Shown: positions 3,918-44,369 of the stretch, piece by piece
Numbering within the stretch: the first letter of the stretch is position 1
Layout: each line of letters opens with the position of its first letter
NCBI GenBank assembly: GCA_046563655.1
Contig: CM102287.1
Span: 8,928,001 to 8,992,000, forward strand
Direction of reading: 5' to 3'
Origin: Yuukianura sp. NJ FZ-2021
Taxonomy: Eukaryota
Length of the DNA: 64,000 bases
The notes under the pieces: model-generated
The model's input: the letters and a program-made list of their open reading frames with translations, nothing else
What the model was told of the DNA's origin: nothing
Database searches by the model: none
Translations under genes and position numbers: made by a program

Positions 3918-6300
3918 TTAATTATGTTTGGACGGTATGGTCACATGAGTCTTTGGTTTTGGAAGGAAACTCCAAAATGGAACGTCCTGCCCAATCGAAT
4001 TTGCCTCTTCAATTGTTTCTGGCAAACTGCGATGTAGAGTTTCCGGCAAAAAAGCGGAAGCTACCGTACCGATAACCGCTACTACCAGAAATGCTAAGTA
4101 TGTCAATGATGTTTCGGTCATAGCCTGCAAAAAATAAAATTTACAATATGAAATTTTTCAAAAACTTCTCTTCTTCAAAAAAAAATTAATTTATGAAAAA
4201 CTTACCATGAGTAGTATAGGTGGCGTTGCTAAATTTAGCGTTTCGGCAAAACCTATTGCAAACCCATAGCCCATGGCACGATGTTCTGTCGGAAAAATTT
4301 CAGCTGCTTGAAGTGGAAAAATCATTGATGTCGTTGATACAAAAAACCTACACATAAGAATTTTATCACAAAATTTTTTACACCAATTTTTTTTTCGTAA
4401 AGTGAAATTTTGAAAATTTTAACTACTTTACTTGCAAAACATTAAGGACGGAACGACCAAGTAGAAGTAATCTGGATACATTGTTCCGAATACCGCTAAG
4501 CCAAAACCGGCAGCACATGCAGCATGTGCAAATGTTTGTGACCAGCGTCTGCCAGCCTTTTCTGAAAATCAGACTTTTGGTCAGACATTTTCAGAAAATT
4601 TTCAGGTTTGAAATTTTTTTCGAGATGATTTTCAACTTTTCCAATTTTTTTTTACTGTTTTAGTGTAACTTACCGGCAAAATACCATCCGAACCACCCTG
4701 CCGGTAGTTCGACAATTGCTAGGAGGAAGAAATTTAGAAATTGATTTCCGGAGAGACTCGTCGTTCTAAAAGTGATTCCGTAGTAAACAATGACATTCGC
4801 TGCTGAAGAAAAACTTAGCAGAATAGTGTTTCTTGCTAATCGTTTTTTTGAAAACAGAGTCCAAATGCTACTTCGGTTTTTTCCTGAATTGATTTCATCT
4901 TGTTTATCTTTGACCCTGTGCAGAAGTCGTTCGAGTTGGCCTGGACCGAACTTGTGTCCTGTCCCATTGGTTGATGCAATTTGTTCCAAAATCTTCTTAG
5001 CTTCTTCTACTCTGTTTTGTGTTAAAAGCCATCGCGGTGACTCAGGAATGTACCCGTAAAAACAAAATGTTAGCAGTAGAGGTAGGGAGGTCAAGGTTCC
5101 AAACAGGTAATAGTCACGGGTCAACCATGACACTAACGGTAGGACGCATATCCCACATACCCTAGTGTGAAAATTCAAAATTTCGAAATTTTGAAGGCAA
5201 ATTTTCAGAAATTTTCGAAAATCTTGGCATATCAAGATAGTTCAGCCTTACCAACTAGACCACCGCAGACCGTAAACCCAAGATCGGAGTTCTAAAAATC
5301 AGGTATTCATCAACTGCAGCTTTGTTTTTAGAACATTTTGAAAATTGTTAGAAATTTTTTTAAAAATTTACCTTTGTTAAAAATTTCTACTGCAATTGAG
5401 TAAATAATGACGAAGACCATCGGGTATGCTGCAGACAGCAACATTTCAGCGACTAAATACAAACTGAAAGTCCCGGGAACCCAGAGACTGATGTACCGAA
5501 AAACTGAAAGGAGGAAACAGCATCCAAAGAAGCTCGGTTTTCTACCCCACCTTGATTTTCAAAACTAAAATTTTCAAAAATTCATTTTTTAAAAAACTTT
5601 TTTTAGTTTTACTTGTCCCCGGTCCAGCCGCAGATAAAAGTTCCCAGTAGACTTCCTACTATTCCAGCCATGAGTGCTACGGTTATGAGATCAGATCTGT
5701 CGCATACCCAGTCGTTGTGTGTCGCCATGGTACCGTCCAGTTGTGACTTGTCATAGTCCCACCCATGTTGACATGGAACTAGGCTGTGGTTATGCGGACT
5801 TACGTACATGTTGCATTGACTAAATCGTTCTAGTCCATCGGGACCAAATTCACTTAAACGTAGAAAAATATAAAGTTGAAGGGTACAGATTTCAAAAATT
5901 TTTTAATTTTGGTATTGTTTGAAATTTACCGCGGTATGGTTAAATTTTTCCATAAGCCCGGAGACGTTGTGTTGTGGTCTATGGGCAATGGGACATGACA
6001 CCAATGATCTGGAACTGTATACAGAAAAGTTGTGTTCATTACGAACAGTGGCAGGAGAAACGAGAATGGACAGAGCAGGCCGTAGAGCAAACATTTTTGG
6101 TATTTGCCATGCGATCCAACTAGTTCCAAAATATCTTCAAATTCTTCTATATTTTGGTAGCATTCATCCTATGATGTGCAAAAAAGTTAAAAAAAAAGTT
6201 CAAAATGTACCAAATTTTTGAAATTGAATGAAAAATTTCTTACTTCCTCTACATTTGTACTAGTATTTTCAAATGTTTTGTAGCCTCGATGTGGTTTCAT
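3918..6300 (-). CDS. SLC22 / organic cation transporter (MFS), multi-exon
   Basis: Typical SLC22 motifs: VPDHWC, PCQHGWDYD...DWVC, GWTGDK-GR, PESPRWLL, VELPA, GRR, AEIFPTEHRA, FLPET; the splice junctions checked are in frame. Confidence 0.9.
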
Positions 6301-7377
6301 TGTTCAAAATTTTAGTCCACTACTAACTTTAACAACAGAATACAACTCTTTACAAAACTGTAATCAACTAACTTTTCAATTAACTAGTGATAAAATTTGA
6401 CTTACTTACTTAGCTACAAACTTGTGGTTGATTTGGCCAACCACATGAATGGTATGGTAAGATTTTGATTTTGAATCTAGCAAATATACTCAGGTTACTA
6501 AAAAAATTAGTCAATGCCAAAGGGGGATGTTAGGTTTCAAATTAGGAACGAATATAAAAACCAGTTAGTTGGAATAAGTTGAACTTGAAATCAAGTTAAC
6601 ATTAGTTGATCCATTGCAGCTTGCAGCATCAATTTACAAAAATCAAGGTTAAACATACATAACATACATGTTATAACAACATAAGTGCTATATAAAATTG
6701 TTTTTACCAGTTTGAGCACTGCGTTTTCCATTTTGAAGGTGTGAAAAAAAAGACATAAAAAAAGAGTCTGGACAGGGCGTTTTCCTGTGAAAGGAAATTG
6801 CAGGTTAGAAACAGAACCAAAAAATGGCACGAGCGATAGATAGAATTACATAAAATTTTGCAAAAAAAAAAAAAACACACACACACACACACACGAGCCA
6901 ATTTTGAAATTTTAGGTTGACAAAAGAGTTTGAATTTAGCTGCTCTCATTTTCATTCTGAAAGGTCAAAGGTTAAAGTTTTAATCAAATGAGGATTTCAA
7001 TTGTTTAATTGTATTTTTTAGTGTCAATGTCAGTTTTTGTTTGCAAAAGGAACCAGAAGTGGTACAAAATTTATTACTGTTGAATGTTGATGATTACTTG
7101 TAGTATGTAATGAAGGATACACAGATCAGGCGCCCTTTTGATAAATGATAAATCCGATGATTTTGTGGTCAAGTGTAAACTGTTGTGTCAACATTTCTTA
7201 AATGTCAAGTAGAAGTCATACTTCAGTTAAGTTACAATTTTTTCATCTATGAAATTAGTAACTGCAAACATCACTTTCGAGTTTTCAAATCTAGCTTTAT
7301 CAAAAAGTATAAAATAAACAAAGTTTAACAAAGTCAAAGCGCAGTGGCAGATGAGACGCTTGGAAAATTTTGTCACG

Positions 7378-9825
<2,448 letters not shown>

Positions 9826-10725
9826 AAAATTTCTATTTTTGAGTGAATTTTTATAAAAAAAAAAAAATCAAATACAAATCAATTTTAAAATTCAAACGAT
9901 TTCAGCACGATACTTCAGACGTTGATTGTAAATCAGCAAAAAAGATGCTGTAAATACTTTACAAAATCAAGGCTAAACATAATATCTATAAGAATAAGTG
10001 CTATATGAATTTTTTTTAACTTTGAGTTCCGAGTTTTGCATTTCTGAAAGTGTGAAAACATAGACATCACAAAAAGTTTGAGTCTGGAAAGGGCGTTTTC
10101 CTGCGAAAGGAAATTGCAGGTTAGAAACAGAAGCAAAAAATGGCACGAGCGATGGAATTACATGAGCGATGACCTCTTGATTCTTTCAAGGTCACCAATC
10201 ACAATCACTCTCACTTTGTGCTTAAAATTCTTCTGTCAAGTACTGACTAGAGTTACGTATTTTCGAATTCCACACAATATACACTTGTTAATTTTGAAAT
10301 TTTAGGTTTGAAAAGTTCTGTGTGAATTTAGCTGATCTCATTTTTATTTTGGAAGGTCAAAGGCTAAGGTTTTATCAAATCAGATTTTAATTGTTCATGT
10401 GTGTTTTTAATGTCAATGTCATGCTTTGTCTACAAACGAAACAGAAAGTGGTACACCATTTTCATTTTTGATGATCAATTATGGATTCACAGATCAAGTG
10501 CCTTTTTGATTTTCGTGATTCGGAGAATTTTGTGTTCAAGTGTAAATTTTTGTCAACACTTTTTAAATGTCAAGTTGAAATGATACTTCAGTTAGGATAC
10601 AATTTTGACATCTATGAAACTAAAAACTGCAAACATAACTTTTAATCTGGTGTTTATCAAAAAGTATAAAATTGTACAAAGTCGAGGCGCAGTGGCAGAT
10701 GAGACGCTTGGAAAATTTTGTCACG

Positions 10726-13193
<2,468 letters not shown>

Positions 13194-13685
13194 CAAAAAC
13201 AAAATCCATTTTTGACAAAATTTAAAAAGTCAAATTCAAACCGACTCTGAAATCCAAAAGTTTTCAGCACTATGCCTGTGAACACTACGGCAAATTTAAT
13301 TTGAAATGAAAAATTAGTGATAGAAAGATTCCAAAATTTTAAGTTCAGAAGCTGCAATACTTTGTATAAAATATAATTGAAATTTTGAATTATAAAATTT
13401 AATTATACTGTAATTTATATCCTGATTTTGATTTTTTGCAAAACAAAGGCAAAACAAAGAGTTGTGTGTATGAATAACCTGTTTTTTGCATGTTTTTTGC
13501 CTCTTGAGTGCCCATTGTTTTCTGCAACAATTGACTCTTTGCTGCAACAATTGAATCGATCGTTGACCTAAATTTACGACTGCATCTTTTGCAAATCTTA
13601 ACGTTTTATAGCACGTTCAAAATTAAATTTCACGATGAATAAATTTGTTGACCACGCAGTTTTTGTACAAATGACTTCAATAGTT

Positions 13686-13758
13686 GGGCGTGTAGCTCAG
13701 TTGGTAGAGCGTTCGCTTAGCATGTGAAAGGCCCTGAGTTCAACTCTCAGCTCGTCCA
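13686..13758 (+). tRNA. tRNA-Ala (anticodon AGC)
   Basis: Cloverleaf: acceptor GGGCGTG/CTCGTCC with G3:U70 Ala identity pair, D arm gctc-agttggta-gagc, anticodon arm ttcgc-ttAGCat-gtgaa, T arm ctgag-ttcaact-ctcag, discriminator A, downstream T-run terminator. Confidence 0.95.
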
Positions 13759-14081
13759 AAAATTTTTGTTTTGCAAATTTTTATTGTTTCGAGTTTATAT
13801 TTAAATACATTTTACAATATTTTTTTTCGTCACGAGTCTGTTTCAAATTGAACAAAAGTGAATGGCGTGGAGGAATGTAATGGGATAATTCAATGGTGGG
13901 GCAGTAGGAATTGGAGGTGGGGCAGCAGTAGTTGGAGGTGGGGCTAAACAAAATTTGTAAAATTCTGGAATTTTTAATTTGCAAAATTTCAAGGAATTAG
14001 TTAAAATTTTGCGTTTCTAATTTATATAAGTTTTGTTAGCATTTTGGCCACTTGTTTGTATTATTTAGCTTTTTGGTTTGT

Positions 14082-16209
14082 TCATCCGTATAAGCTAAGT
14101 TCCTGGTTTTGAATGATGGGCATAAGTTTTCGCAGAATTGGTTCGAGCGCAACGTCATTTTCAACAAACGGAATAATTTGTTCCAGTTTTTCTAAAAAGT
14201 GTTTTGCATCTTGCCCCAGGGGATACTCATGTACAAGGTACATTGGATCTGTCCTCCTGCGAATAGCAATTGCTTGTCTAACAGCAATCAGCAATGCAGC
14301 AGCCACTTGCTCAGAAAGTTCAAGAATGTTGAGACAGTCTCTAGCTGCAATTGTGCCCATGCTCACTTTGTCCTGGTTGTGACCTTCAGTTGACCTCGAA
14401 AAAATTGATGCTGCCACAGTATTCTTGAGGGCCTCGCCGGCCCATGCTGAACAACTGATCTGAAGTGCTTTCAAACCATGGTCAATACAAGCCTCTCTTC
14501 CAGTAGCACCAGACAAATTCGCAGGAAGGCCATGATTGTAATTTGTGTCCACGAGCAGAGCCATTTGTCGATCCAGAAGATCAGCCAAGTTGGCAACCAG
14601 GATTTTCATTCCGTCCATAGCAAAAGCAATATGGCCTCCTAATTATATGTCACGTGATCATAAAACTCAAGGTTCTTCAAGAAACAAAAGGTTTTTTTTC
14701 TACGCCAGGTTGTCCCCTAACTCAAAAACTCAATGTTTTGAGAATTATTGTTGAAAACTTCGTCAAACATTTTCTCCTGAAGCTATTATTAATGGTAATT
14801 GTTGTGTGATTGAGATTGGAAGAGAATTGAAGGAAAGAATTGTTTTTTTTTTTGAGATTTTCGAAAATTCCGGGTTATTGGACAACCTGTTGTAGGAATA
14901 CAATTTGGTTGTCAATGAACCTTGATAAAACGTAATAATTCATAAATTCGCATTCATTTTTTTATAACAATAATAACTTTATATCATTTGGATCATCTTT
15001 ACCATAAAAATGTCCTCCGTGCAGAACGCGTTGACTGTCGACATCAATGATTGGATTGTCATTGGAGCTGTTTAGTTCTGATTCGATCAAAGTCCGAAAA
15101 AATGGAAGCGAATCTTCCAGCACTCCGATGACATGCGGCGAACAGCGAATGGAGTAACGATCTTGGATTCTCGGAATTTTGTTGTAGTCGGCCGGAGCGT
15201 CAGAAATCAGCAAGTCACTTCTGATTCTAGCAGCGACGAGTTGCTGTCCAGGGTGAGGCTTGACTGAAAACAAAGTTTCGTCATAGTGAAACAAGTTCCC
15301 ACGCAGAGACACAATGGCCAGAGATGCAATTCTGGAACAGAGTTTGGACAAGTACTGCGCACGACAGAAAGCCAAAGAAGCCAATCCAGTCATCACTGAC
15401 GTTCCGTTCATAATCGCCAGACCTTCTTTCGGTGCTAGCCGAAGCGGAGAAATTCCAAGCTGCCAAAAATTTAACCCCTTCCGTTCAAAATGTTGATCGC
15501 ACAATTTGGTCTTAAGATTGCTTAAGTTCAAACTAACTACTGAGAATTTCGTTTTTATAAAATATTTCGAACCTACCTGTTTCAGAACCGTGTCGGCTGG
15601 AACGATACTTCCGTTGTACCGAACATTTCGATCTCCGCAGAGTGTTGCTGCAACGTAGGACAGTGGAGTGAGGTCTCCAGAAGCTCCGACTGATCCAGTC
15701 GAAGGAATGCAAGGCAAAATGTCCAACTGTAGAAAAGTGACCAGTTTCTGAAGCAGTTCGAGCCGTACGCCTGAGAATCCTCTGGCCAGAGATGCTAATC
15801 GAGCGACCAAAATGCTGCGTGTTTCAGCTTCATTGAAATGCACTCCCATTCCGCAGGCGTGGTAGAGACATAGGTGATTCGGAAGGTCAGCGACAAGGTC
15901 TTTGCCGATCATCACAGTACAATTGTTGCCATAACCAGTGTTTACGCCATAAATGATCAAATTTTCTTCTAAAAGCTTTTGAACAGTTTTGTGTCCCGCT
16001 TCAATCTGATTGCAGTAGGATTCGTTTGGAGACAGAATGACATCTACAGTTCGTCTAGAAATGTTCCAAACATCTTCAATTGTCAGTTGATGTTCTCCGA
16101 TTACAATTGGATTCCTGGTTAGTTGACCTTTAACCTGCATCTTCATTCCGTTTTGCTTACAAATGCCGTTAGTGTGACTATGGTAATGTCCGTTGGTTGC
16201 AAGATCCAT
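14082..16209 (-). CDS. MIO-dependent aromatic amino acid ammonia-lyase (HAL/PAL/TAL family), bacterial-type sequence, 3 exons
   Basis: IYGVNTGYG, GSVGASGDL (ASG MIO triad), KEGLAIMNGT, QDRYSIRC, NDNP, HGGHFYGGH, STEGHNQDKVSMG; exons 16209-15577, 15459-15003, 14638-14082 with GT-AG introns. Confidence 0.93.
14664..14925. mobile_element. MITE-like inverted-repeat element in intron 2 of the ammonia-lyase
   Basis: Left ctacgccaggttgtcc (~14700) is the inverted complement of right ggacaacctgttgtag (~14881); a related copy lies at ~45238-45470. Confidence 0.65.
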
Positions 16210-16782
16210 TGCGGATGAAGTGTCGTTGGCGACTGTTCTCAAGTAGGTGTGAAATGTTCGTATTTATAAGCTAACCATCAAAACGAATTTATGACTGTGA
16301 CTGATAGTCTACGCTAATTAAAAAAATCTTCCAAGGGTAGGTTTTGTTGGGGTTCATTAAAAATTTAGTGCTGAGGAACTGCAAAATTAGCAATAAGATT
16401 TTGATCGACATTTGTGTTCTCAACCCTAACCTTGCTAGAAAATACTAATGACGGTACTGGTTCCACGTGCTGCATGAGATTCCATCGAATCATAAAAACT
16501 TTACGCTCAAAAAAATAGTAGAACGTCAAGTGCCTGTTAAAATAAAGGGCAAGTGTTTAAGATTTTAAATTTTTTTTTAGAATAGAGAACGCTTGAAGAA
16601 TACCAAAAAGCGAGGCATTTAATTAAAGCAAATTTTTTTTCCCACGAATTACATAATGAAAATTTTCCTTCTGCGACTAAAAAATGCTCCAAATCTGCAC
16701 AATTAGACTTCAGGCTTATTCTTACGTAAACTATGTTTAAATTATGTTCAACATTAATTAGAGTAAAATTATCTTTTCTCAC

Positions 16783-17044
16783 TATCTAGATGCAAGGTTT
16801 GTTGACTTGTGATTTTCTTTAACAGGTTGGGTAATACCTCATGTTTTTTCGATTTTGCAAGAAAAAGTATTTTTTCATTTCGGTACATCGTAGTCATAAC
16901 TATTCAGCCAATTTTTTTTTTAATTTTTGCATACAAATTGGTACCAATTTTTCGGATTGGTACTAATTTTTTTTAACAAGCGAGGGATTACCCAACCTAT
17001 TAAAGAAAATTTACTTTTCGTTGTGCAAGAACATTGTCTAGATG
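16783..17044. mobile_element. MITE-like palindromic element
   Basis: ~29-bp inverted repeat attttctttaacaggttgggtaatacctc (~16813) vs gagggattacccaacctattaaagaaaat (~16982), with outer tctaga matches; non-coding interior. Confidence 0.65.
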
Positions 17045-17093
17045 TATGATATGGATTTTCTCATGGTTTTGTAGCTTAGGTCATGTTATGACG

Positions 17094-18625
17094 TCAACCA
17101 AAAGTGAGCATGAGTCGCACAATAGATCGCAGAACAAAGTTTTTGAGAATAATGAGGTACGTATTTCTGCGTATTGAGTAGAATGAGCCAAGTTTGAATT
17201 TTAGTTCTGGACATGACTTTCTAAATTGTTTTGTAAGGATGTAGGTGTGGGCTCTTGGAAATTGACCTGATACGACTCTAGCCTGTGCCAGAATGCGCAT
17301 GAACAGAAAGAAGAGGCCAAAGGTCGTGACTCCAATGAGTAGAAATAGGATAGTTGTGTAGTGATTAACTGAACTGTGCAAAATGATTAGCCAAAATGAA
17401 ACTGTGATTTGGATTAAAGATGCGACGATTTGAGTTGATGCAATGACGATGTTGCAAAGTGCGTCTACTTCAGCAAGTAACAATGCAGTTGTGCGGTAAA
17501 AGAGTTCCACGTTCTTCCGAGCACGAGTTGTCGTTTGACCAATCACAGCCCTAGAGAAAGTATTGCGGTAAACACAAATGTTTAGGGAAAGTAAAAAAAA
17601 AAATTGGAGAAAAATGTATTAGTTTCAGAAAGCGAGTTTTTGTTTGAAAAGGACAAAATTTTGGGGAAATTGAGTAAAATACCTGAGATTTCTGTCCTGG
17701 ATCCACTTGATGGTACAACTGTCCACGACTAGGATGCCAATGACACAGTACATGAGACAATGTGTCCACAGTACACTTGACAATGCAGTGATGTATAGTG
17801 ACAGTACAAGTATTTTGTGAGGAATTGGTGACATGACCCAAAGTATGAACCGCATAAATACCAAATCCGAGGAGAAAAATAAGTAAAAGCCCGGGATTTC
17901 CACCATAGGTGAACAGATTACCAAAATTGTCGAAAATGTTATCATTTCGTCCAGTCGGCTTTTGTCGGGCGGAGTAACAGAGAAAATAGTTTCTAAAAAA
18001 GGAAACTTAGAATGAAAACATAGAATTTTAAGTTTAGAAATTTGAAATTTTGTGTTTAGAAACTTAAAATTTTGAGGTCAAAGTTCCTTTTTTGCGTTAT
18101 ATGATACAATTCCAACTTATGCTACGTTTTCTATGCCGTTTCTCTAGGAGAGTCTGAAATATGCCAATATGCATGCTTAGCGTGGACCTCACTATTCTAA
18201 TCAATAGATACATCTATGTGTGTGTGTTTCGTAAATTCTTTTGGAAACTTACGGTACTTTTGATTGTAAGCCAAGTAGTTGTTGAGTAAATGCATGCATC
18301 TGTCTAGTCTTGTGAGATAGAAAAATTCGAGTAGAAGAGCCATAGCAAAAATGCAGGCAATGCAGATGAGCATAAATGTTTCTTCGGTTGGTAGTTTTAC
18401 AAATACGGAAACTAATGCAAATTGAGCAAGTGCTATCAACTGCGTAGTAATGCTAAACCAAGTAACAAATTTCCACAAAGGTATTTTAATCTTCTTAAAA
18501 CACCCGTAATTTGTAGCTGGTTCAAATTTTAAATTTTTAGAATCAAATGACAACGGTAACAAATAGAAAATATTTCCAATCCAACAACAAAACTGAATAA
18601 GTTTAAACGTTTTTTTGGAAATCAT
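17094..18625 (-). CDS. Gustatory-receptor-like multi-pass membrane chemoreceptor, 3 exons
   Basis: Exons 18625-18253, 17992-17683, 17550-17094 splice in frame; many hydrophobic helices; C-terminus LKFKLGSFYSIRRNTYL...LMLTFG resembles the three genes at 42.7-47.6 kb. Confidence 0.65.
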
Positions 18626-19459
18626 TTTCGTCTTCAAAAAAGAAAGGAATCAAATTTTTTTTTCGAATTTGTTTGTGTCCAAATGCAATAACAGGAATGG
18701 TGGCGACACAAATTCAGTTCAGTGCTCTTCCTTTTGTTTACGAAGCTTCGATACTTTTTGATTTTGGTTTTGAAAGGTTATTTTTGGGACACTTTAGTAA
18801 GTTGTTTTTGTGTAAACTTCTGAAAAGAGGTTTTAAATTGAAGTTTTTACTATTATGCTCAAAGCTTTCAAAAACGTTTTAAAAATGACATTTTTTTTAG
18901 AAACAAACAACATAAAAAATTTAAAGAAACTCTTACTTATGGTCTTTTCAAAAAAAGAATTAATGTTGCGATTGCTGAAAATCTTATGTGAAAATTTAGA
19001 ACATACATCAACCTTGGAGTTAATTAAGACAATTTTAATTGGGTTTTCCCATAACGTCATCCAGGATGGATAGTGTAGTGAACAATTCCAAATTACATTA
19101 CAAAAAAATCTCAAATGTACGAATATGAAAACAAGTTTCTAAGCTAAAGCAAAAACACATGAAAAGGAACACAAAAACTACTAACTTTGCTATAATAGAA
19201 TTCATGGACACTCGATTTGAGCAATTTCCCTGATTTCATTTATGAATTTAGTTAATATTTTACCTTCCACTATGTTGTAATCTATGTAAAGTTACAATTT
19301 ATAAACTAAACTAAACATAAAAACTCCGGTCACACGTTTTTAGACTTGCAAGAAAACTTATATATTGACAATTCCCAAAATCTACGAACGAAGTATTTCT
19401 AAAATTTTACATTTTTGCACTACTTTTTTTTTGTTACAACGAATTTGTACAACTGTACA

Positions 19460-21068
19460 ATGCCCGCCAAACTAAAGTTTTTGTTCATGCCGGCTGATGG
19501 ACTGGGTCACTACAACGCCTGTTTTGGACTCGCTGGTGTACTGCGTGACAGGGGTCACAGCGTGACCTTTGTGGGGTCACTTAAATGGAAAGGCAAGTTG
19601 GCTGCTCAAGGATTTGTAGAAGAATTGTACAGTGTTCCAGGAGAAGAAAACGAAAGTGAGGAGCAATGTGGGGAAAGATGGGGCAAAATGATAGCAGCAG
19701 CCGCTCCAGTCTTTTCTCTTCCACCAATAGAAATGCACGAACACGTCTACTTACCCCTGGGGCTAACCGGAATCAGGTTGATTCAAGCTATCAACGATCA
19801 GCTGGCGGAAATTGTGCAGCGTGTTCAACCGGACATGATCGTTGCGGACTTGTTTCATCACATTCCTGGACTTATGGATCAAGGTATGTATTTTGAAGCG
19901 GTATCTACGGTATTTGAAACGGTACCGGTACAATTTTATTTAAAACGGGTACCCTTCATAAACTAAAAGGTACCAGAGTCGTCATTTCGACGGTATTTCA
20001 TATTAGTATTTCATATTTTTTTTTTAGGGTGATTGTATATGAAATGGTATTGATAAGTTAACGGTATTTTGTTGCGGTATTTGTAGGGTACCCCTGGATC
20101 TTAGCATTTTCATCTCAACCGTTACCGTTTTCCCGCCAAAACGTGCCGCCACCATTTGCTGGACTACCGACTACTGATCCTGACAACCACAAGCAAACTT
20201 GGGCACAATGGGACGAAAAACATGCCCAGATTTACAAAAATTATGAAAATGAGTACAACGAATTTCTAAAAAGCAAAGGAAGCAAGGAAATTAAATTTTC
20301 ATTTCCATATTGTTTGCAACACTTCTCCCCTCATGCAAATCTGTACATGTACCCAAAGGAATTGGACTACACAAGTATTCGGCCTAATCCGCCAAACTTT
20401 TTTCAATTCGACACATTCATGCGACCGGGAACTGGAAATTTTGAAATTCCTGAACAACTTAAATCGGGCCCTGGGAAAATAGTGTATTTTTCAATGGGGA
20501 CAATGGGCGCAGTTGAATTGAATTTGATGCGGAAACTGATTTCAATTTTATCAAAGTCTCCAAACAGATTCATTGTTTCTAAAGGTATGTGCGAATTTCA
20601 AAAAAATCCAAAATTTTGAAAATTTCTAAAAAAAATTTGGAACTTTTAGGCCCGAAAGGTGAAGAACTCGAGCTTCCTGAAAACATGTGGGGAGAAAACT
20701 ATGTTCCACAAATAGACGTGCTCCCATTGGTGGATCTCGTGATCACGCATGGCGGGAACAACACGATTACGGAATCGTTTTACTTTGGGAAACGTGTTCT
20801 CGTTCTGCCTTTACTTTTTGACCAACCAGATAATGCTCAGCGTCTGATCGAAACTGGACTAGGACTTGGCTTCAATCCATTCACTGTCACTGAAGATCAG
20901 TTGCTCGTTGCCATAGAAACGCTCCTTGGCGACAACGTCTTAGAACAGAAAATGGCCGCTATAGGACGCAGAATCCAAGCATCGAATAGCCAATCAAGAG
21001 CGGCCGATTTAATTGACCAAATGACAAGAAAAGTAATCCGTGACACTAGGGGCTGCCGACAGCAGTAA
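19460..21068 (+). CDS. UDP-glycosyltransferase (GT1, soluble bacterial/mite-like type), copy 1
   Basis: N-terminal DGLGHYN (catalytic His), RGHSVTF, VYFSMGT, signature VPQIDVL...ITHGGNNTITESFYFG...PLLFDQPDNA; exons 19460-19883, 20087-20584, 20651-21068; no signal peptide or TM anchor. Confidence 0.93.
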
Positions 21069-21594
21069 ATCAAGAGCAGAAGAGAAATTCTTAAAATTTC
21101 AAAATTCTCAAAAATTTTAATTTTTAGTTTCCAAATATCTAACTTTTAATTTCCAAATTTTTCTCGCCAATCACTAAATTGAGTATTCTGTTGTGTCTAA
21201 ATTTTCTTTTTGCACTATTTTTTTTTTGCTGAGCATAATTCGTGATGTTTTTATGAATAAAATGACCTCGTGATGTTTTGCAAAAACATCACGAGTTTTT
21301 AGCAATTCGTGTCACATGGTCATTTTAACCTTGTTTGTCCTCCACGCGCATCTACGTGACCTTTTCATTTATCACTGACTATCAATTGAGAATCTCAATT
21401 AATACAACCTTCAACTTAGCCAATAAAGCCTTTAATTCACACTCTAACTTGATATCTCATATTTTTAGTGAAAAAAAAACCGCTTCAGTGTTTAAAATTT
21501 TCACTTTCTAAACAAGCAGCTAAACAGTTGTGGAATTTGGAAATTAAAAGACAAATCGCATCCCTTGTGCCGATTTGAATTTTGGCGGTACAAA

Positions 21595-23906
21595 ATGTCG
21601 TCAGAGAAGTTGAAAATACTGTTTGTACCGGAAGACAACATGATGGGACCATTCAATGCCTGTATAGGCATAGCTTCTGTGTTGAGAGACAGAGGTCACG
21701 TGGTGACCTTTGCAGCATCGACAAAATGGGCAGGAAAATTGAAAATTCAAGGCTTCCAGGAAGAACTGTTCACTGGGCCAGACGAGGAACTTAATGCTAA
21801 AGGTGAAGCTGGAGATACTTTTGGTGACTGGATTACCGCAATTGCTCCAGTTTTGGCTCAACCGACTATAAAATTCCATGAAGCCATCTACAGCAAAATG
21901 TTGGAAGAAACAACCAAAATGATTATTCATACGAATGAACAATTCAAGGCAATTGTAGCACGAGTACAACCGGATGTGCTTGTGCTTGATCTGTGCCAGC
22001 ATGTTCCAGCACTCATGGATGCAGGTAATGTACATGCACGTATCAGGTGAAATGGCCAAAACAATTTGGCCAAAAGTGAAATGGTCAGAGGTGAAAAGGC
22101 CAGAAGTGAAATGGCCAACATAGGCACAACATAGGCAAAACATAGGCACTACATAGGCAAAACATAGGCAAAACATTGGCAAAACATAGGCACTACATAG
22201 GCAAAACATTGGCAAAACATTGGCAAAACATAGGCACTACATAGGCAAAACATTGGCAAAACATTGGCACTACATAGGCAAAACATTGGCAAAACATAGG
22301 CACTACATAGGCAAAACATAGGCACTACATAGGCAAAACATTGGCAAAACATTGGCACTACATAGGCAAAACATTGGCAAAACATTGGCACTACATAGGC
22401 AAAACATTGGCAAAATATAGACACTACATAGGCATTTTTTCCTAATTCTGATCTTTTCACTTTCTGGTCTTTTCTTATTTTGGCCATTTCACTTTTTGGT
22501 CTTTTCACTTTTTGGCCTTTTTAATTTTTGGTCATTTCCTTTCTGGCTTTTTCGCATTTTGGCCTTTTCACTTTTTGGCCATTTTAATTCTGATCTGTTC
22601 ACTTTTTGGCCATTTCACTTCTGGCCTTTTCACCTCTGACCATTTCATTTTTGGCCAAATTGTTTTGCCCAAATTACAAGGAATCGTACATGCGCGATTT
22701 CAAATGAAAAGATTCAAGAATACGCGCCACATGAGGTACATAAGTGCAATTACGGTACTTTGATTTCGTTTTCCAATAACATTCCGGAAAATTCAGAATT
22801 CACGAAATCTTAATTTTCGAAAAATTTCTCCTCCTAATAATAATTCTGGAATTTCTTCGCTCCATTTTGCATCCAATTTTTTTCTATTTTTTTTTTTCAA
22901 ATGAAGCTATATCTTTTTCATTTTTTTTTTTTTGAAGTTTCAGGAATACCGTGGATCCTCTCCGTATCATTGACTCCGCTAGGAATCTCGGGTGAAAACG
23001 CTCCTCCAGCTTGTTCCGGTTATCCCACAGAGGGTGACAAAAATGCCTGGAAATTGTACGATGAAGAAGTTGCCCGAGTTTACAAAAATTCGGACGCCGA
23101 ATTCAATGATTGGCTGGTTTCTCAGGGCAGTCGACCAATGAAAAGACAGTTTCCATTCATGATGGACTTTTCACCCTACGCCAATATCTACATGTACCCT
23201 GACGAATTGGACTACACTCCATTCCGCCCAAATCCACCAAATTTCTATCAATTTTCGTCTTTTGTCAGAAAATGTACCGAAACTTTTGAAATTCCGGAAA
23301 AACTGAAAAACGGTCCAGGAAAATTAATTTACTTCTCAATGGGAACTATTGGCTGCTGCGAAATTGGATTGATGAAGAAACTTATTTCATTTTTGGCCAA
23401 ATCACCAAATCGGTTCATTGTTGCCAAAGGTAAAAATGTGATTTACATTGTTGCAACATTTCAATATGTTTGAAATTTTGAACTTTGAAACTTTTTTTGA
23501 AACAGGGTGGAAAGGTGATGAGCTTGAGTTAAGCGACAACATGTGGGGAGACAAGTATTTACCGCAGTTAGCGATCCTGCCTAAGGTTGACCTTGTGATT
23601 ACCCACGGTGGGAACAACTCTGTGACGGAGTGCTTTTATTTTGGACGTCGCGTATTGGTTCTGCCGATTTTGTTTGATCAACCGGACAATGCACAGCGTA
23701 TTGTTGAAACTGGACTTGGGCTGGCATTCCATCCTTACAAAGTATCTGAAGAAGAGCTGCTGAAAGGAATTGAAACACTGCTGGCAGATGACCTATTGCA
23801 ACGCAGAATGACCGCGATTTCACGCAGAATGCAGTCGTCTAACAGCCAATCAAAAGCTGCCGATTTAGTAGAACAAGTTGCAAGGAAACAAAAAATTCAG
23901 CTTTAA
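21595..23906 (+). CDS. UDP-glycosyltransferase copy 2 (His replaced by Pro at the catalytic position)
   Basis: Exons 21595-22024, ~22944-23429, 23506-23906; signature LPQLAIL...THGGNNSVTE...FDQPDNA; N-terminal NMMGPFN. Confidence 0.9.
22038..22686. mobile_element. Foldback/MITE-like element with an internal 11-bp tandem array in intron 1 of UGT copy 2
   Basis: ~64-bp inverted repeats (22054-22118 vs 22606-22669) flank roughly 29 copies of cat(a/t)ggca(aa/ct)a at ~22119-22434; absent from the equivalent introns of the other three UGTs. Confidence 0.8.
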
Positions 23907-24162
23907 CTGTAACTCCTGCAAAACGAATCTAAACATTTGAAGACAAACAAATTTTAACAACGTAGCACAAAAGTAGTTCTTCCTCCACTAGATAAATGAG
24001 TCAAAAAATTTCTCTTCGCTTTACTAACTTCAGATTCGAATAAGTTTTTTATAGTCTTCAATAGTCAGCTGATTTTACACAGAAGTTTCATACTGTATAA
24101 GTTTCGGTTTGATTTTGTTTTTTTAGAAGTTTTAGAATTTCGTTGATTTTGTGTAAAAAAAA

Positions 24163-25682
24163 ATGTGTGAAAAGTTGAAAATTTTGTTTATGCCGGAAAC
24201 CGGTATGGTGGGATCCCTCAACGCTTGTATTGGCATTGCTTCTGTTTTAAGAGACAGAGGTCATCATGTGACCTTTGTAGTGGCAAGTACATGGGAAGGA
24301 ATACTAGAAAATCTAGGATTTTTGGAAGAGTTGTATTCGATTCCACCAAGAAAAAGTGATTCTGAAGAATCCGAAAATTCTGTTGATCCGATTTCACTGT
24401 CTCCTCTGGAACTACATGAAGCCTTATACGCAAAGTGTTTAAAAAAGGTCAACAGGACAATCCGTTATACACATGATCAGCTCAAAACAATTGTATCAAA
24501 AGTAGAACCGGACGTCATCGTACTTGATGTCTGTCAACATATTCCAGCACTCATGGACTCTGGTAATCCGCATGTGCAGATTTTTTTTCACTTTTCTACC
24601 AATTTGTGGTTGTAACGCCCTAATGCTTCTAAACGGTATTTTACGGTACTTGCAAAACTAAAATTCACAAAAAATTTTGGCGCACTTTACAAAAACGTTT
24701 TTTAGGAATTCCTTGGATACTTTCTATATCAATTATGCCGCTAAGCATTTCGAGAGTGAATGTCCCTCCTCCTTATGCTGGATTTCCTACGGAAGGAGAT
24801 CGAAGTGAATGGAAATCTTACGAAGACACAATTTCAAAAACTTATAAAATTTTGGATGAAAAATTCAAGGAGTGGCTGGTTAGCGTAGGAAGTGAGCCAG
24901 TAGAACGACACTTTCCATTTCACCTTAAATTTTCACCTTACGCCAACATGTACATGTATCCACTTGAGTTGGACTACACCGCCTACCGTCCAAATCCGCC
25001 AAATTTCTTTCAATTTGATGGTTACGTGACAAAATCAACCGAAGTTTTTGAAATTCCTGAAAAACTTGAAAATTGTCCAGGAAAACTGATTTACTTTTCA
25101 ATGGGAACTACTGGATTCTGTGAAGGACTGCTACTGCATAAACTGATTTCAATTTTATCAAAATCTCCAAACAGATTTATCATCTCCAAAGGTATTTTTG
25201 GAAAAAAGTGATTTCAAAAATCAAAATTCAAAAACTTAAAAATGCTTGTTTTGAAAATGTTTCAAGGTTGGAAATGCGACGAGGTTGAGCTGGGTGAAAA
25301 CATGTGGGGTGAAAACAACATTCCGCAGCTAGCTGTCATCCCATTGGTCGACCTTGTGATTACCCACGGCGGGAACAACACAATTACGGAATGCTTTTAC
25401 TTTGGAAAGCCTGTTCTGGTTCTTCCGATGCTGTTTGACCAACTTGACAATGCGCAGCGCATCCAAGAAACGGGACATGGACTGGCGTTACATCCCCATA
25501 GACTGTCTGAATCCGAGTTGCTGGTTGCCATAGAAACGCTATTGGCAGATGACCTCCTCCAACGCAGAATGAAATCCATATCGCGCAGAATCCAAGCATC
25601 AAATAGCCAATCAAAAGCAGCAGATTTAGTGGAAGAAGTAGCCAACAAGCATAGCAAACGAAAGCAAACTTTGAGTTTATGA
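24163..25682 (+). CDS. UDP-glycosyltransferase copy 3 (His replaced by Ser at the catalytic position)
   Basis: Exons 24163-24562, 24706-25191, 25267-25682; THGGNNTITE...FDQLDNA; N-terminal GMVGSLN; shorter first exon. Confidence 0.9.
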
Positions 25683-26067
25683 AAATTTGAAAACTAAAGT
25701 CTTGACGTTGCGATTTTAAAGAAGTTTGACAAAAATGTCAAAGTTAGGATGAAATTGTTATGAATTAAAAAATAAATGGGCACGTTGACACAGGAGTCAA
25801 TGCCATTTGTGAAATTTGTGAATGTCAGATTGACCTCTGCCAGTGTGAAGGTCATGATAAAGTAGTTCTGAAGTAGCCATAATCGTTGATAAGTTACTCA
25901 AGTGTTAGCATTGAAGATGAAATAGAAAGCATCAATCACTTTGACTTTAGTACTTGAATCTAGAGGTGAAATTTCATTTCAAAAACTTGTTTTAGAGATT
26001 TCTAAAAAAAATACAGTTTTTTTGTTGTGAACCGGCGGATTTCCAAGAAAATATTTCGGGCAGCAAC

Positions 26068-27537
26068 ATGGCTGAAGAAAAGTTGAAGTTTTTGTTTGTC
26101 CCCGTAGATGGGATTGGGCACTTCAACGCTAGTTTTGGCATAGCTTCAGTGTTGGTCGACCGAGGTCACTCGGTGACCTTTGCTGCCCCACCACAATGGA
26201 TGGGAAAACTGAAACCAATGGGATTCGAGGAAGAGATGTATACTGTATCAGACGAACCGGTACAAAGTACTGACGACAGTACAACAAAATGGATTCAAAT
26301 GATATCCGACACGGCTCAATCTTTTAGTCATCTTGTTGAAGTCCATAAACACTTCTACATCCAATTGTACATCCGAATTTGGAATTTCTACAGATATGCG
26401 CATGAGCAATTCAAACAAATCGTGGAACGGGTTAAACCAAACGCCATAATTTTGGATATCTTCTACCACGTTCCGGCGTTGATGGAAACCGGTAATTCGT
26501 TAAATATTTTGAATTTTTGAAACTCCCGCGTTTTATACAAATCGTGCGTCTTATACAAAAACATTTTTTTTTAGGAATTCCTTGGATTAACTTGATATCG
26601 ATTGCTCCACTAGCGATTTCCAGAGACAATGTGCCACCACCCTACGCAGGAATTCCGACAGAAGGCGATCCTACAGAATGGCAAAATTTTGAAACCGAAG
26701 TTTCAAAACTTTACAAAAATTTGGAAATTGAAAACAACCAATGGCTTAAAGATGTAGGAAGCAAAGAAGTCATACAATTCAAAATGCCGTACTTTATGAA
26801 ATATTCTCCTCACGCTAACATCTACATGTACCCAGAAGAATTGGACTACACAGCTTACCGCCAAAATCCACCTAATTTTTACCGGTTTGATGCCTTAGTA
26901 CGCAAGTCAAGCGACACTTTTGAAATTCCCGCAAAACTTGAAACCGGCCGTGGAAAACTGATTTACTTTTCAATGGGCACCGTTGGAAGCGTTGAGATCG
27001 GCGTAATGAAGAAACTGCTTTCAATTCTATCAAAATCTCCAAACAGATTTATCATTTGTAAAGGTACAATTTTCGAAAATTTTCACTTCGAAATTCCATA
27101 TTTCAAAATTTCGAAACTTAGGAGCCCGTGGAGATGAACTTGAGCTTGGAGACAACATGTGGGGTGCAAATCGCCTTCCGCAGCTAGCTGTCATCCCATT
27201 GGTTGACCTTGTGATTACCCACGGGGGGAACAACACAATTACGGAATGTTTCTACTTTGGAAAACGCGTTCTCGTCCTGCCTATGCTGTTTGACCAACTG
27301 GACAATGCGCAACGCATACAAGAAACTGGACATGGACTGGGATACAATCCGTACAAGGTGACCGAAGACGAGTTGCTTGTTGCCATAGAAACGCTACTTG
27401 GAAACGACTTACTGGAAAGAAGAATGACCTCCATTTCGCGCAGAATCCAAGCGTCCAATAGCCAATCAAAAGCGGCGGATCTGGTAGAGGAAATCGCCCG
27501 GAAACATTACGAATCTACAAAATTCCACCAATACTGA
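26068..27537 (+). CDS. UDP-glycosyltransferase copy 4
   Basis: Exons 26068-26491, 26575-27063, 27122-27537; DGIGHFN with catalytic His; THGGNNTITE...FDQLDNA. Confidence 0.93.
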
Positions 27538-28247
27538 AGGGGGTACTAGTTGAAACATTAGTGCAAACGGTTGTATGTGATTAATTTCAAGGGGTAAGAA
27601 ACTAGTAATTAAGTTTTTAAGCTTCAATTAATTACTGACGACCAATTAACATAAGGAGAAGTTTACTGAAATAAAATTCTAGAAATTGTTTGCCCAGCTA
27701 TGAAGAAGTGGGTGATTCTCTGTGCGTGGGTATCCTCTACTGCGACTTGGAATTTCAAAGATAAGACGAAGTAAACATTTGGTTTGTTTTCATTGAGATT
27801 GAAGGCGAGTTTGTTTACGAAAAGAAGGTCACGAGGTCAATCAATGTATAGGACGTTTTAATTAGTGCTACATGACGTAAATAACACATAAAACATAAGC
27901 TGTTGTGTGTCATTGTTTGGTGACTGGTTTGCCAGCTTCCCCATTGGTAAGGTAGGGCCTTTTTTAATAATAAAAGAAATAGAAGTTAAGTAGATATTGA
28001 TACGATTCAACTTGAATCGAATTGCTTGAATCATTCAAGCATCGAATATAGTGTGTAACGTTTGTTGTTCGCGATTAACACACCAGTAGTATTGCGAAAC
28101 TTACGATTAGTTTTAAGCTGTCAACGTGGTGAAAGGTGTTTGGCAGTGCCACATTATCCTGGAAGAAAAGTCAACGAATTTTAATTTTTTTTTGCTGAAA
28201 TAGGGACTCCGGGGTTGGGGGAAGTGCACGGAAGAGTCCGGTATTCA

Positions 28248-30896
28248 ATGGCTTTCCAGGGGTCGTCCGGTTCGGGAAACAGTTCACGCTCCCTGGAACA
28301 TGATAGTGGCGACAATGAAAACAGTGGTGGGATTCACATCAGTCCAAGTAGTAGCAGTGGAACCGGAAGTGGCGGTGATGTGATGTCCAGTGACCCTGTT
28401 CTTCCAGATCCTGACTTTAATAGTACCAATACGGATGCTGAAGAAGATGCTGTCGAACCAGGGCCTGTTGTAGTTAATGAGTCAGCCGAAGTTGATGTGA
28501 ACGCCAACGACGAACAATTGATTGAGGTTGATGACCTTGTTCCACGTCCCGACGAGTACCCAGAAGGCGTAGTTCGTTTTCCAGGGTTGTTTCCTGTTAT
28601 GAACCAAGGTCCCGACTTTAGTGATGAAAGCGACGATGATGGAGATCCCAATGAAAACGTTCAAAATGACGTTTACAATGATGAGGATGTTTGGAACCCA
28701 GAATCAGTTGGAACAAATTCGACAGACAGCTTGTCAAGTGAGTCCAAGTTAATAATCTAAAAAACTGAACAGTTATTGAACTTGTACAAATCAACACTCG
28801 ACTGAAGAAGTTGTAGTAAATTGAACCATCGTCAAAGTTGCCATGTCCTTGGCCCATGCAGTTTAGTTACACAAAGTGTTAAAACGGAATAAATATTTTG
28901 TAAGTATAAAATGAAAAAACATTTTTTCATTTTGATTCAATCAGTTTTTCTAATTCCACTTTTCTTGTTTGTTTTCTTGGTGCCACGTTTCTCGCTTACA
29001 AGTTACAAGAACTGCATGGGTGATGGATCGTATACTACGACTGGGTTCAATTGCTTGGCTTATTAGAAAGTTCCGACGTCGTCGACGTCTTCCCCTACCT
29101 CCGGCAGTAGAACGTATAACTTCATACTATACGTTTCCAAAACGTTTTAAGTAAATGTTGATTAATTTTAATCCTATTGTTCATCTTTGCAGGGGAAAAT
29201 GATTCTGGAGAAGAGGAAGAACCACCGGCAGAATTCGATCCAGAGTTACCAGCACGTCATATCGTGAGTTGAACGTAGCAATGCTATTTCACGCTTTCGT
29301 TAACTATGTTCATCAACTTCATCAATTGATTGTGCTGTTTCAGTATTTGGGAGAAGCTATGGAAGAACTGGAAGGCCGAGTTGTCTTGGAAGAAGAGTCA
29401 GTCATGGAAATCCCAATTGTTGTGATGAACTTTCACTTGATCCCTGGACAAACCTTGCCAATGACCGTATTTCATGCCGTTTTTCAAAACGCCATCCGCC
29501 GCTGCATTTTGAACGAAAGAATCTTCGGTGTTGTCAACAGTGGACTGGAATCTACTGCCTGGGATGGTCGCATAGTAGTGAGTAAAAATGCACTGGGAAC
29601 GGTTGCTGAAATTTATGAATTTCAAGAAGAGACTGATGTTCCTGCAAATCAAAATCCATTTGACCCTGACCCTATAATGGGCTCAAACTTTGCTCTCAAA
29701 GCCAAAGGAAGACAACGTTTCAATGTTCTGGAAGTGAGACGACAAGCTGATGGAAATCTAATGGCAAAAGTTAGAATTCGACCCGAAATACAACTGTCTC
29801 CTCCCATGACCCAACTCCTATCGAATGATCGTGTCAGATATCAATTTCCCATGCTCAGCTCCATTTCTGCTTCTAGTTCTTCTGTCATCGTTGAACAAGA
29901 AGATGAAGCTATTGCCATGGCTGGTTCTGGAGATGCATCAACTCAAATCGTTAGTGTTCACTAAACTTGTAACATTTTCCAAAAAAAAAATTAATTTTTT
30001 CTTTGTAGGTTCCAGACCATAAGCCACTGGAATCCCTGATTTCAGAAATCAATATCAGGAGACCACTAAGGAGATACTACGCAGCTCTAACACCGTGGCC
30101 AGCCTTTGTTTATGAAAATTACGATGAAAAAATTTTGGTTGAAAAAATTCACCGGAAGTTGCATAACGAACTGCGTGGACTCACTGAATCCCATTCCAGT
30201 GTTCCACTGGATCCAATTGAACTCAGTTTTTGGCTTGCCCAAAACTTAACTATGGACGATACCATTCGACTTCAAATTCTTCAAATGGATTCCTGTATCC
30301 AAAGACTCCGATTTGAATTAAGCCTTCTCCAGAACGTGGTAAACTTCGAAATTTTTAGCAAAAGAAGTTTAGTTTCTAATTGATTGAAATTTTAGTCTCA
30401 AGTAATAAGCTGCCGACGATGCATGAGCACCATTGGAGACCATGCAGATATTTTTGCCATGTCAAGTGAAGGTCCCCAGGGAACTTATGTCAATCCAAAT
30501 GGACATATTCATGAGACTCTGACTGTTCATGAAGTCAGGGAAATTGTTACGCGTGGATTTCCATCAACAGTAGCATCTTGGTTTCAGGGGTAACTTCTAA
30601 TTGTTATGTGAGTTAAGTTGATTACTTCTTAAATCTTATTGTTTTTTAGTTATTCTTGGACAATTGCCGAGTGTCGACGATGTCGCCAACATCTTGGTTG
30701 GAAGTTCAAGGCCACGGGAAGGTTGAAACCCAAAAAATTTTGGGGACTGGCTAGAAAATCCATAACATTCAAATACGATTTTTCACCGGATGGTTTGGGG
30801 GATAGACGAAATGCGTCTGATGGGCGATCCTCGAGTTCTAGTTCCTTTAGCACCACCATCACAGCACCAGTTCTTCCACCGTCACAACAATTTTAA
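28248..30896 (+). CDS. CRBN: Cereblon (LON N-terminal domain plus CULT thalidomide-binding domain)
   Basis: Acidic N-terminus; LIPGQTLPM, GTVAEIYE, KAKGRQRF, SFWLAQNL (LON domain); SCRRC, [38 protein letters not shown], FWGL (CULT); 6 coding exons. Confidence 0.93.
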
Positions 30897-43976: not shown

Positions 43977-44369
43977 CTTGACTTATCGTAGTATATGTTG
44001 TGAATATTTTTTAACACTGTCAGAAATTTGAACCAATTGGAGTTAGTGAATTGAATTTCTACACACTACCTACGTATTTGCCTCGTTTATGGAAATATTC
44101 AGTTTGTTTCTACCAAGGTATATAAGTCGATGTGTTAATGGGATGGTTGTGATAAGGAAAAAATAATAATTCCACATTTCCCATGTCAGTTTAAAAATTT
44201 AAGTAACGAGTAGACGAAAACATGGCGCCAATCAAAAGCACGCAGTTTCTAGTTCTAAATAAAAAACTTACTCTTGACCTCGGAATTTCTAAAACGTCAA
44301 CAATAATGTCAACCGAGCATTTTTGCAAATTTGCAAAATTTGATTACTTCAAAACAGCTAAATACTTTA

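Follow-up and report, generated by a model that had tools for sequence, protein, structure and literature searches.

Chemical defences made of two components are known from several insects, among them the cyanogenic glucosides of burnet moths, the salicin of leaf beetles, and the myrosinase systems of flea beetles and aphids. In these defences a glucoside made by a UDP-glycosyltransferase (UGT) is stored, and a glycoside hydrolase family 1 (GH1) enzyme lies in another compartment. These systems have been shown experimentally and their genes are generally unclustered, whereas the locus described here is known from its genes. It belongs to a 64,000-nucleotide stretch of the Yuukianura sp. NJ FZ-2021 assembly (GCA_046563655.1, contig CM102287.1, positions 8,928,001 to 8,992,000), hereafter the window, which encodes both enzyme types with the matching signals. 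Between positions 3918 and 27537, two GH1 genes and four UGT genes are found together with a gene for an aromatic amino-acid ammonia-lyase of the MIO (4-methylideneimidazole-5-one) type and a gene for an SLC22-like organic-ion transporter.

Adjoining foreign biosynthetic genes have also been described in a springtail, since Folsomia candida carries a beta-lactam biosynthesis cluster derived from horizontal gene transfer, as reported in the available part of PMC5490193. The genes of that cluster all belong to one microbial pathway, whereas the lyase of the window lies without its bacterial neighbours and the UGTs have another origin and another taxonomic range. Concerning the chemistry, the cinnamate-forming step defines the phenylpropanoid metabolism of plants, fungi, and some bacteria, and, as far as we are aware, the conversion of aromatic amino acids into cinnamate-type acids is not known from animals.

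The first-pass annotation of this DNA had listed the eight genes as a candidate cluster for the synthesis, glucosylation, transport, and activation of a phenylpropanoid-type or urocanate glucoside. The inventory was borne out, as every part of it was found at or near its predicted position. All eight genes are present and apparently intact, and the lyase, UGT, GH1, and SLC22 genes represent four non-homologous gene families that adjoin within 3918-27537. Regarding their interpretation, the locus is, on balance, probably a gene-dense stretch of an arthropod chromosome in which three sets of environmental-response genes that evolved independently have come to adjoin, the lyase being a horizontally acquired enzyme of the tyrosine/phenylalanine type. 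The most solid new point is what appears to be a domesticated aromatic ammonia-lyase of the aryl-polyene (APE) type in springtails.

Ammonia-lyase gene and its origin

The lyase gene is located at 14082-16209 on the minus strand and encodes 548 amino acids in three exons (16209-15577, 15459-15003, and 14638-14082), separated by two GT-AG introns of 117 and 364 bases. The Pfam family Lyase_aromatic (PF00221) was matched with E-values of 1.6e-105 on exons 1-2 and 7.8e-33 on exon 3. The protein presents the MIO motif G-S-V-G-A-S-G-D-L, which includes the Ala-Ser-Gly triad, as well as Y-G-V-N-T-G and Q-D-R-Y-S-I-R-C, and the columns of these motifs (MIO, Tyr loop, and Q-D-R-Y-S-x-R-C) are invariant across 18 aligned sequences. 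Intron 1 falls exactly at the position of a gap in the homologues, and a bacterial homologue could be aligned across intron 2 without loss. The G+C content at third codon positions (GC3) is 0.42, within the range of the neighbouring host genes (0.36-0.48). Moreover, the comparison with the closest homologue, found on a metagenome contig (L081, 1-3691), gave pN = 0.22 and pS = 0.79, a pattern that points to purifying selection. The two introns, the host-like GC3, and a pN far below pS argue that the lyase is a gene of the host.

The nearest named relatives of the lyase are mostly bacteria, which could raise the suspicion of bacterial contamination or of an assembly chimera. The probability of this is very small. 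Once the two spliceosomal introns of the gene are taken out, it aligns free of gaps, and its GC3 is that of the host, while the loci of the nearest bacterial relatives exceed 45% G+C. Furthermore, intron-bearing animal genes lie on both sides of it in the same contig, one intron position is common to L081 and the window, and related proteins are annotated in Folsomia.

The origin of the gene was studied with a search of 5.8 billion proteins, from which the best 120 matches were examined. Among these 120, the best relatives are bacterial histidine, phenylalanine, and tyrosine ammonia-lyases (HAL, PAL, and TAL) from Massilia, Stenotrophomonas, Methylococcales, and others, with 50-54% identity. 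A Folsomia candida protein (P0003) and a metagenome protein (P0001) are also present, Folsomia being the only named arthropod with a relative among the best 120 matches. In alignments, the window lyase is 54-60% identical to the bacterial relatives, 58% to the Folsomia protein, and 67% to the L081 homologue. In the L081 gene, an intron of 87 bases occupies the site of intron 1 of the window gene, and intron 2 is absent. In a tree of 49 rows built by a quick search with IQ-TREE, the window lyase, L081, P0001, and the Folsomia protein form one clade (SH-aLRT 99), which is nested in a set of 17 rows of lyases from Pseudomonadota and Myxococcota (SH-aLRT 97). Hence, the claim of a bacterial-type, horizontally acquired lyase holds, both in the relatives and in the nesting of the tree. 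A single transfer seems likely, short of proof because the branches are long. The gene would have been captured by horizontal transfer in an ancestor common with Folsomia, and would then have acquired introns and the codon usage of the host and come under purifying selection.

The bacterial context of these relatives was established at one locus, that of Iodobacter (L003). There, the lyase relative lies among genes for ApeI-like, ApeP-like, ketosynthase, LolA-like, GT2, acyltransferase, and halogenase proteins, a neighbourhood that is recognizable by its gene content as an APE cluster. Of the 16 APE open reading frames (ORFs) of L003 that were compared with the window, only one was matched there, namely the lyase itself. 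The lyases of APE clusters (Iodobacter L003, and those of Stenotrophomonas, Massilia, and Collimonas) belong to the same subfamily as the window enzyme, sharing with it the MIO motif, a [YF]-H residue pair, and the stretch N-Q-D-K at 54-60% identity. On the other hand, the copy in the window stands by itself within the genome of an animal, has two introns, and carries about 30 extra N-terminal residues that are absent from most bacterial relatives; the N-termini of P0001 and L081 also differ from that of the window. The best matches among solved structures are the PALs of Anabaena (2nyn/3czo/5ltm) and Nostoc (2nyf). These enzymes have the same short bacterial architecture, and they are more distant than the APE-type lyases and carry F-L where the window lyase has Y-H. 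Taken together, these data support the view that the lyase is a domesticated bacterial gene of an APE-cluster-associated subfamily, acquired horizontally.

Regarding previous reports, no published description of such an ammonia-lyase gene in arthropods was found in the literature on horizontal transfer, mites, Collembola and Folsomia, and aryl polyenes, some supplements of which could list the gene. Two supplementary files of the Folsomia genome paper contain neither "ammonia-lyase" nor "PF00221"; other supplements of that paper may still list it. If a conserved, intron-bearing lyase of this kind is maintained by purifying selection in springtails, the bacterial genes that soil arthropods have domesticated would include one more enzyme class. 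It would also offer a genetic entry point to the origin of the aromatic defence compounds of springtails, on whose biosynthesis the available part of PMC11376146 gives only a hint.

Some minor features of the relatives should also be noted. The relative P0002 has 671 amino acids, with an apparent internal repeat of its middle part and a precomputed PF07531 label. Downstream of the lyase in L081, at about position 2818, there is an ORF with no Pfam match, the beginning of which gives a tentative impression of an amidotransferase. In the DNA run X5, which belongs to a second study, the piece on 15284-15863 (lyase exon) has a depth of 72, versus 3.5-6.6 for the UGT pieces, so that a similar lyase may be carried in that sample by another organism of higher abundance.

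Substrate of the lyase

In this enzyme superfamily, selectivity is switched by a residue pair, which is F-L in PAL, H-L in the TAL of Rhodobacter, and S-H in HAL, and a glutamate of HAL contacts the imidazole. The window lyase has the pair Y-H and the stretch N-Q-D-K, and [YF]-H with N-Q-D-K is likewise found in its eukaryotic relatives and in the rows of APE type. The pair S-H together with E-D-H (Q/K-E-D-H) appears in the nine rows outside the aromatic-lyase clade, and two actinomycete rows of this clade have F-L. When the best 120 matches were parsed, 63 presented Y-H and 55 F-H, with one oddly parsed and one unparsed; that is, 118 of the 119 parsed sequences have Y-H or F-H.

The hutH equivalog model (TIGR01225) has a cut-off of 539 bits. 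Only L070 and L080, both belonging to the nine rows with S-H and E-D-H, exceeded it (676-690 bits), and the full-length sequences of L003, L001, and the Folsomia protein stayed below it (381-387 bits). The window lyase was scored against this model only exon by exon, with 284 bits for exons 1-2 and 55 bits for exon 3. Exon 3 obtained 140 bits with a tyrosine-lyase model and 55-74 bits with the HAL models.

These data bear on the possibility that the enzyme is a histidine ammonia-lyase, producing urocanate for histidine breakdown or as a UV screen. Two facts speak for it: the NCBI name of the Folsomia relative is "histidine ammonia-lyase", and HAL models give the top NCBIfam scores on exons 1-2 (284 bits). 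Nevertheless, the lyase has Y-H and N-Q-D-K at the two sites by which HutH rows are told apart from the others, the full-length relatives remain far from the scores of the true HutH rows, exon 3 prefers the tyrosine-lyase model, and the closest solved structures are the cyanobacterial PALs. Because Y-H and Q replace S-H and E, and because the full-length relatives fail the hutH cut-off, a histidase is very unlikely, and the urocanate option of the first-pass annotation is disfavoured since the histidase markers are missing. It can be added that the Folsomia protein P0003, which bears the public name of a histidine ammonia-lyase, reached 381 bits, well short of the 539-bit cut-off, and presents F-H together with N-Q-D-K; its histidase name is probably wrong.

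Hence, we infer that the lyase acts on tyrosine or phenylalanine rather than on histidine. Tyrosine would be the favoured substrate because aryl polyenes carry a hydroxyphenyl head and a halogenase lies beside the bacterial gene. The scores with the FlxA and BagA/FevW models were far below their cut-offs, and the H-L pair of the Rhodobacter-type TAL is absent, with Y-H in its place. This shortfall lowers the case for a known TAL type and does not count against an action on tyrosine. The enzyme would thus remove ammonia from L-tyrosine (or L-phenylalanine) to yield p-coumarate (or cinnamate), and it may also have aminomutase activity.

UGT array

The closest described relatives of the UGTs are the bacterial-derived UGTs of acariform mites, Folsomia, and bdelloid rotifers. 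According to the available part of PMC9113151, the UGTs of mites arose by transfer, cluster with Folsomia, rotifer, and bacterial sequences, and form tandem arrays (Ahn et al. 2014 is cited there for the family). Given this reported grouping, the family can be considered as already described.

The four UGT genes of the window follow one another on the plus strand. UGT1 (19460-21068, 446 amino acids) has exons at 19460-19883, 20087-20584, and 20650-21068; UGT2 (21595-23906, 438 amino acids) at 21595-22024, 22944-23429, and 23506-23906; UGT3 (24163-25682, 433 amino acids) at 24163-24562, 24706-25191, and 25267-25682; and UGT4 (26068-27537, 442 amino acids) at 26068-26491, 26575-27063, and 27122-27537. 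All of them have three exons, two intron positions in common, and lengths of 433-446 amino acids. In their proteins the first beta-strand stands at the very N-terminus, no signal peptide precedes it, and the highest 19-residue hydropathy window lies between 1.01 and 1.39, which indicates that there is no membrane anchor. Both assessments come from a hydropathy scan and not from a dedicated predictor. The earlier description of these enzymes as cytosolic-type UGTs agrees with the lack of anchor and signal peptide, and they fall within a bacterial-derived family.

In fact, a search with exon 2 of UGT1 retrieved 15 relatives, and the 10 that are named are all "YjiC-like" UGTs of acariform mites. 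The best NCBIfam family for the UGTs is the bacterial macrolide-type MGT, and exon 3 of UGT4 matches the Pfam families UDPGT, EryCIII-like_C, and Glyco_tran_28_C. Among solved structures, the best matches were UGT203A2 and UGT202A2, with the human UGT2B domains scoring far lower. We take UGT202A2 and UGT203A2 to be enzymes of Tetranychus urticae that act on flavonoids and plant phenolics. The likeness to the mite, Folsomia, and rotifer enzymes thus extends to the closest sequences and structures, the MGT donor motif, the lack of an anchor, and the tandem arrangement, and by these features UGT1-4 can be assigned to the bacterial-derived, anchor-less arthropod UGT family. On the other hand, the window UGTs differ from the mite proteins in that they are just 30-43% identical to them, belong to a springtail-like host, and in two cases lack the N-terminal histidine. 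Their mutual identity is 56-62%, and this value, together with the 30-43% to the mite proteins, indicates that the array is old.

Concerning their active sites, the C-terminal donor motif H-G-G-N-N-[ST] ... D-Q-x-D-N-A is present in the four UGTs. The N-terminal histidine (G-H), which is the catalytic base of GT1 enzymes, is kept in UGT1, UGT4, and nine of 13 aligned relatives. It is replaced in UGT2 (G-P) and UGT3 (G-S) and is also missing from the other four of the 13 relatives, so UGT2 and UGT3 may be inactive or may use another base. UGTs of this mite-type family are promiscuous towards phenolics, and the four old tandem copies would most likely use UDP-glucose to glucosylate small cytosolic molecules of phenolic or lipophilic nature.

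Intron 1 of UGT2 contains minisatellites at 22067-22656 with periods of 11, 15, 16, 31, and 47, and on the minus strand these repeats produce a long ORF that is spurious. The summed contig depth at about 16790-16990 and at 21974-22656 is about 20-100 times that of the neighbouring bins, so both segments can be regarded as high-copy repeats.

GH1 pair and SLC22-like transporter

GH1_1 (7351-9825, plus strand) encodes a secreted family-1 beta-glucosidase in about 11 exons, the inner borders of which are approximate. GH1_2 (10699-13168, plus strand) is its recent tandem copy, recognized by Pfam Glyco_hydro_1, motifs, and DNA identity. Starts and stops were obtained by in-frame extension, and the tblastn pieces cover residues 40-500 of the homologue P0179. 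Both copies match Glyco_hydro_1 and present the NEP and ENG motifs with both catalytic glutamates. The signal peptides that had been claimed for them agree with the hydrophobic N-termini of secretory type found in both.

The two copies share 87% DNA identity over 2.5 kb, introns included, and show dN = 0.067 and dS = 0.244 over 383 codons, from which it follows that one recent duplication took place and that both copies are constrained. Therefore, the first-pass annotation was right in counting two GH1 genes, which are nevertheless the products of a single recent duplication. The identity is 63% to Allacma fusca, up to 66% to metagenome proteins, 56-58% to Folsomia and Orchesella, and 58-59% to beetles. 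By these similarities, the pair appears to be a recently duplicated native gene of ordinary springtail type. A tblastn search found no further UGT or GH1 copies in the 64-kb window.

The SLC22-like gene, a member of the major facilitator superfamily (MFS), is located at 3918-6300 on the minus strand, with exon 1 at 6300-6244, exon 2 from 6168, and the stop codon at 3918-3920. Its start lies 132 bases beyond the ORF that was probably used in the first-pass annotation. The protein matches Pfam Sugar_tr (6.9e-9) and also MFS_1. Among solved structures, the one exon tested retrieved OCTN2, OCT1-3, URAT1, and OATs with E-values of 2e-16 to 7e-5, and xylose symporters with 3e-4, which places it closer to SLC22 members than to sugar porters. 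The GH1 pair and this carrier probably serve digestion, or deglycosylation and excretion.

Relationship between the neighbouring genes

The adjacency of these genes raises the question of whether they act in one pathway. The co-location was analyzed in 80 loci of bacterial genomes and 80 metagenome loci with a lyase relative, which were found with an alignment query (the lyase as a single query gave no relatives); the flanks reached at most 10 kb and many contigs were shorter. By tblastn, none of these 160 loci showed a relative of the UGTs, of the GH1s (mite and springtail homologues included), or of the SLC22 exon beside the lyase, which argues against a co-transfer of the lyase with any of them. 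The flanks of the L081 lyase (0.4 kb upstream and 1.6 kb downstream) contain nothing like the window and no tRNA. Moreover, the UGT family is found in mites, rotifers, and Folsomia, a range far wider than that of the lyase, and the array is older than the lyase.

The contigs of four DNA runs over 7300-27299 measure 325-1207 bases, and none of them bridges two genes. The many contig "joints" seen in these runs were discarded as cross-matches between paralogues or repeats, since their sides amount to 20-31 letters at 80% likeness.

With no pairing in the 160 loci, different taxonomic ranges, and different L081 flanks, the tests made here do not support the claim of one pathway. As for conserved linkage, no shared neighbours were found in the bacterial and metagenome loci and the L081 contig, a set that covers these and not springtail genomes. 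Thus, from the earlier interpretation as a whole, the horizontal acquisition, the anchor-less UGTs, and the secretory GH1s stand, while the urocanate product is disfavoured and the single pathway is left unsupported. The alternative that the same annotation had offered, a chance co-location among detoxification paralogues, is more likely, and the neighbours of the lyase would then act independently of it.

Several points weigh against this view of independent neighbours around a horizontally acquired tyrosine/phenylalanine lyase. Within 24 kb lie four non-homologous families whose functions could be joined into a single route, from the synthesis of an aromatic acid through its glucosylation and transport to its release. 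The UGTs are cytosolic and the GH1s secreted, which is the compartment separation that a two-component system requires. The comparison with L081 covers just 0.4 kb upstream and 1.6 kb downstream of the lyase. In the quick-search tree, long branches are joined in the eukaryotic lyase clade, and the identity of the window lyase to bacteria (54-60%) is about the same as that to Folsomia (58%). We know of no assayed member of the [YF]-H lyase subfamily, so the substrate is read from sequence and bacterial context. Finally, springtails use aromatic defence compounds, on the biosynthesis of which the available part of PMC11376146 says little and nothing firm.

Some of these points are also what a true metabolic gene cluster would have in its favour. 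In such a cluster, the lyase would produce p-coumarate or cinnamate, one or more of the neighbouring UGTs would convert it into a storage form, either a glucoside or a glucose ester, the SLC22 carrier would move it, and the secreted GH1s would release the aglycone on demand. Its purpose would be a two-component defence or the supply of precursors for aromatic defence compounds (oxidised benzoic acids and substituted benzenes), and its parts, different in origin, would have been gathered after transfer by selection for clustering. We consider this cluster, with the purpose and history just described, distinctly unlikely. It is favoured by the presence of all four functions in intact-looking genes within 24 kb, by UGTs with no signal or anchor next to GH1s with secretory N-termini, and by solved UGT relatives (UGT202A2 and UGT203A2) that presumably take plant phenolics. 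The use of aromatic defence compounds by springtails and the horizontally acquired antibiotic cluster of Folsomia (available part of PMC5490193) fit it as well. Against this, adjacency is the only evidence of a link between the genes, there is no sign of co-transfer in the 160 loci, the lyase and UGT families differ in range and age, and the L081 flanks differ. In addition, the two GH1 copies arose very recently from an ordinary gene of springtail type, and UGT2 and UGT3 are without the usual catalytic histidine. Genes for secreted GH1s and SLC22 carriers, like arrays of UGTs, are also commonplace in the detoxification and digestion of arthropods.

A more limited coupling could exist between the lyase and the UGTs alone, in which an adjacent UGT would conjugate the lyase product for storage, solubilisation, or excretion, and the GH1 pair and the SLC22 gene would be unrelated neighbours. 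A single membrane-protein gene separates the lyase from the UGT array, both are foreign-derived and now under host control, and UGTs of this family are promiscuous to phenolics. However, this coupling is deduced from adjacency, like the full cluster, and the lyase and the UGTs are encoded on different strands and set apart by a further gene and a high-copy repeat, so that we regard it as unlikely. If the UGTs, GH1s, and transporter did act with the lyase, the locus would be a metabolic gene cluster of a kind rarely seen in animals, put together from separate transfers; if the neighbours are independent, it would be an ordinary detoxification and digestion patch with one notable foreign member.

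Other genes in the window

The window is eukaryotic DNA, with a G+C content near 36%, introns that are short and of GT-AG type, and a single tRNA. This tRNA-Ala (anticodon AGC), identified with ARAGORN at 13685-13759 on the plus strand, lies 323 bases from the stop codon of the lyase, and the end of GH1_2 is 914 bases from this codon. At 17094-18649 on the minus strand, between the lyase and UGT1, the ORFs of a multi-pass membrane protein gene were found. The eight genes had been described as interrupted only by a tRNA and one chemoreceptor-like gene; both interruptions are confirmed, and the chemoreceptor identity of the second remains a lead. No Pfam match above noise was obtained for this gene or for its look-alikes in the window. 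Its nearest Atlas clusters are arthropod hypothetical proteins (0.96-0.98), followed by 7tm_7 clusters (0.87-0.88), so it can be placed in an arthropod-only family, possibly with kinship to gustatory receptors. Three tandem ORF sets at 42676-47616 on the minus strand resemble it by eye and present a similar C-terminal stretch.

Other genes of this kind are found further along the window. At 36998-38377 on the minus strand there is an ecdysteroid-kinase-like (EcKL) gene of two exons (Pfam E-values of 5e-41 and 9e-19), a candidate detoxification gene of a pancrustacean family. Together with the GH1 identities and the grouping of the lyase with Folsomia, this gene points to a springtail, or a close hexapod relative, as the probable host. 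Since the window also carries EcKL, P450, lectin, and receptor-like genes and the look-alikes of the membrane gene, all of fast-evolving environmental-response families, the chance of meaningful-looking neighbours is raised.

A gene with a LON substrate-binding domain lies at 29203-30383 on the plus strand, where it closely follows an ORF (28185-28760) that is acidic and rich in Ser and Gly, and its product is cereblon-like as a guess. Two adjacent and similar SUEL-lectin-like ORFs were found at 48538-49524 on the plus strand, a cytochrome P450 at 50988-51900 on the minus strand, and a rhodopsin-type G-protein-coupled receptor (GPCR) at 52621-55479, also on the minus strand. The N-terminal ORFs of this receptor are leucine-rich by eye, as in a leucine-rich-repeat GPCR (LRR-GPCR).

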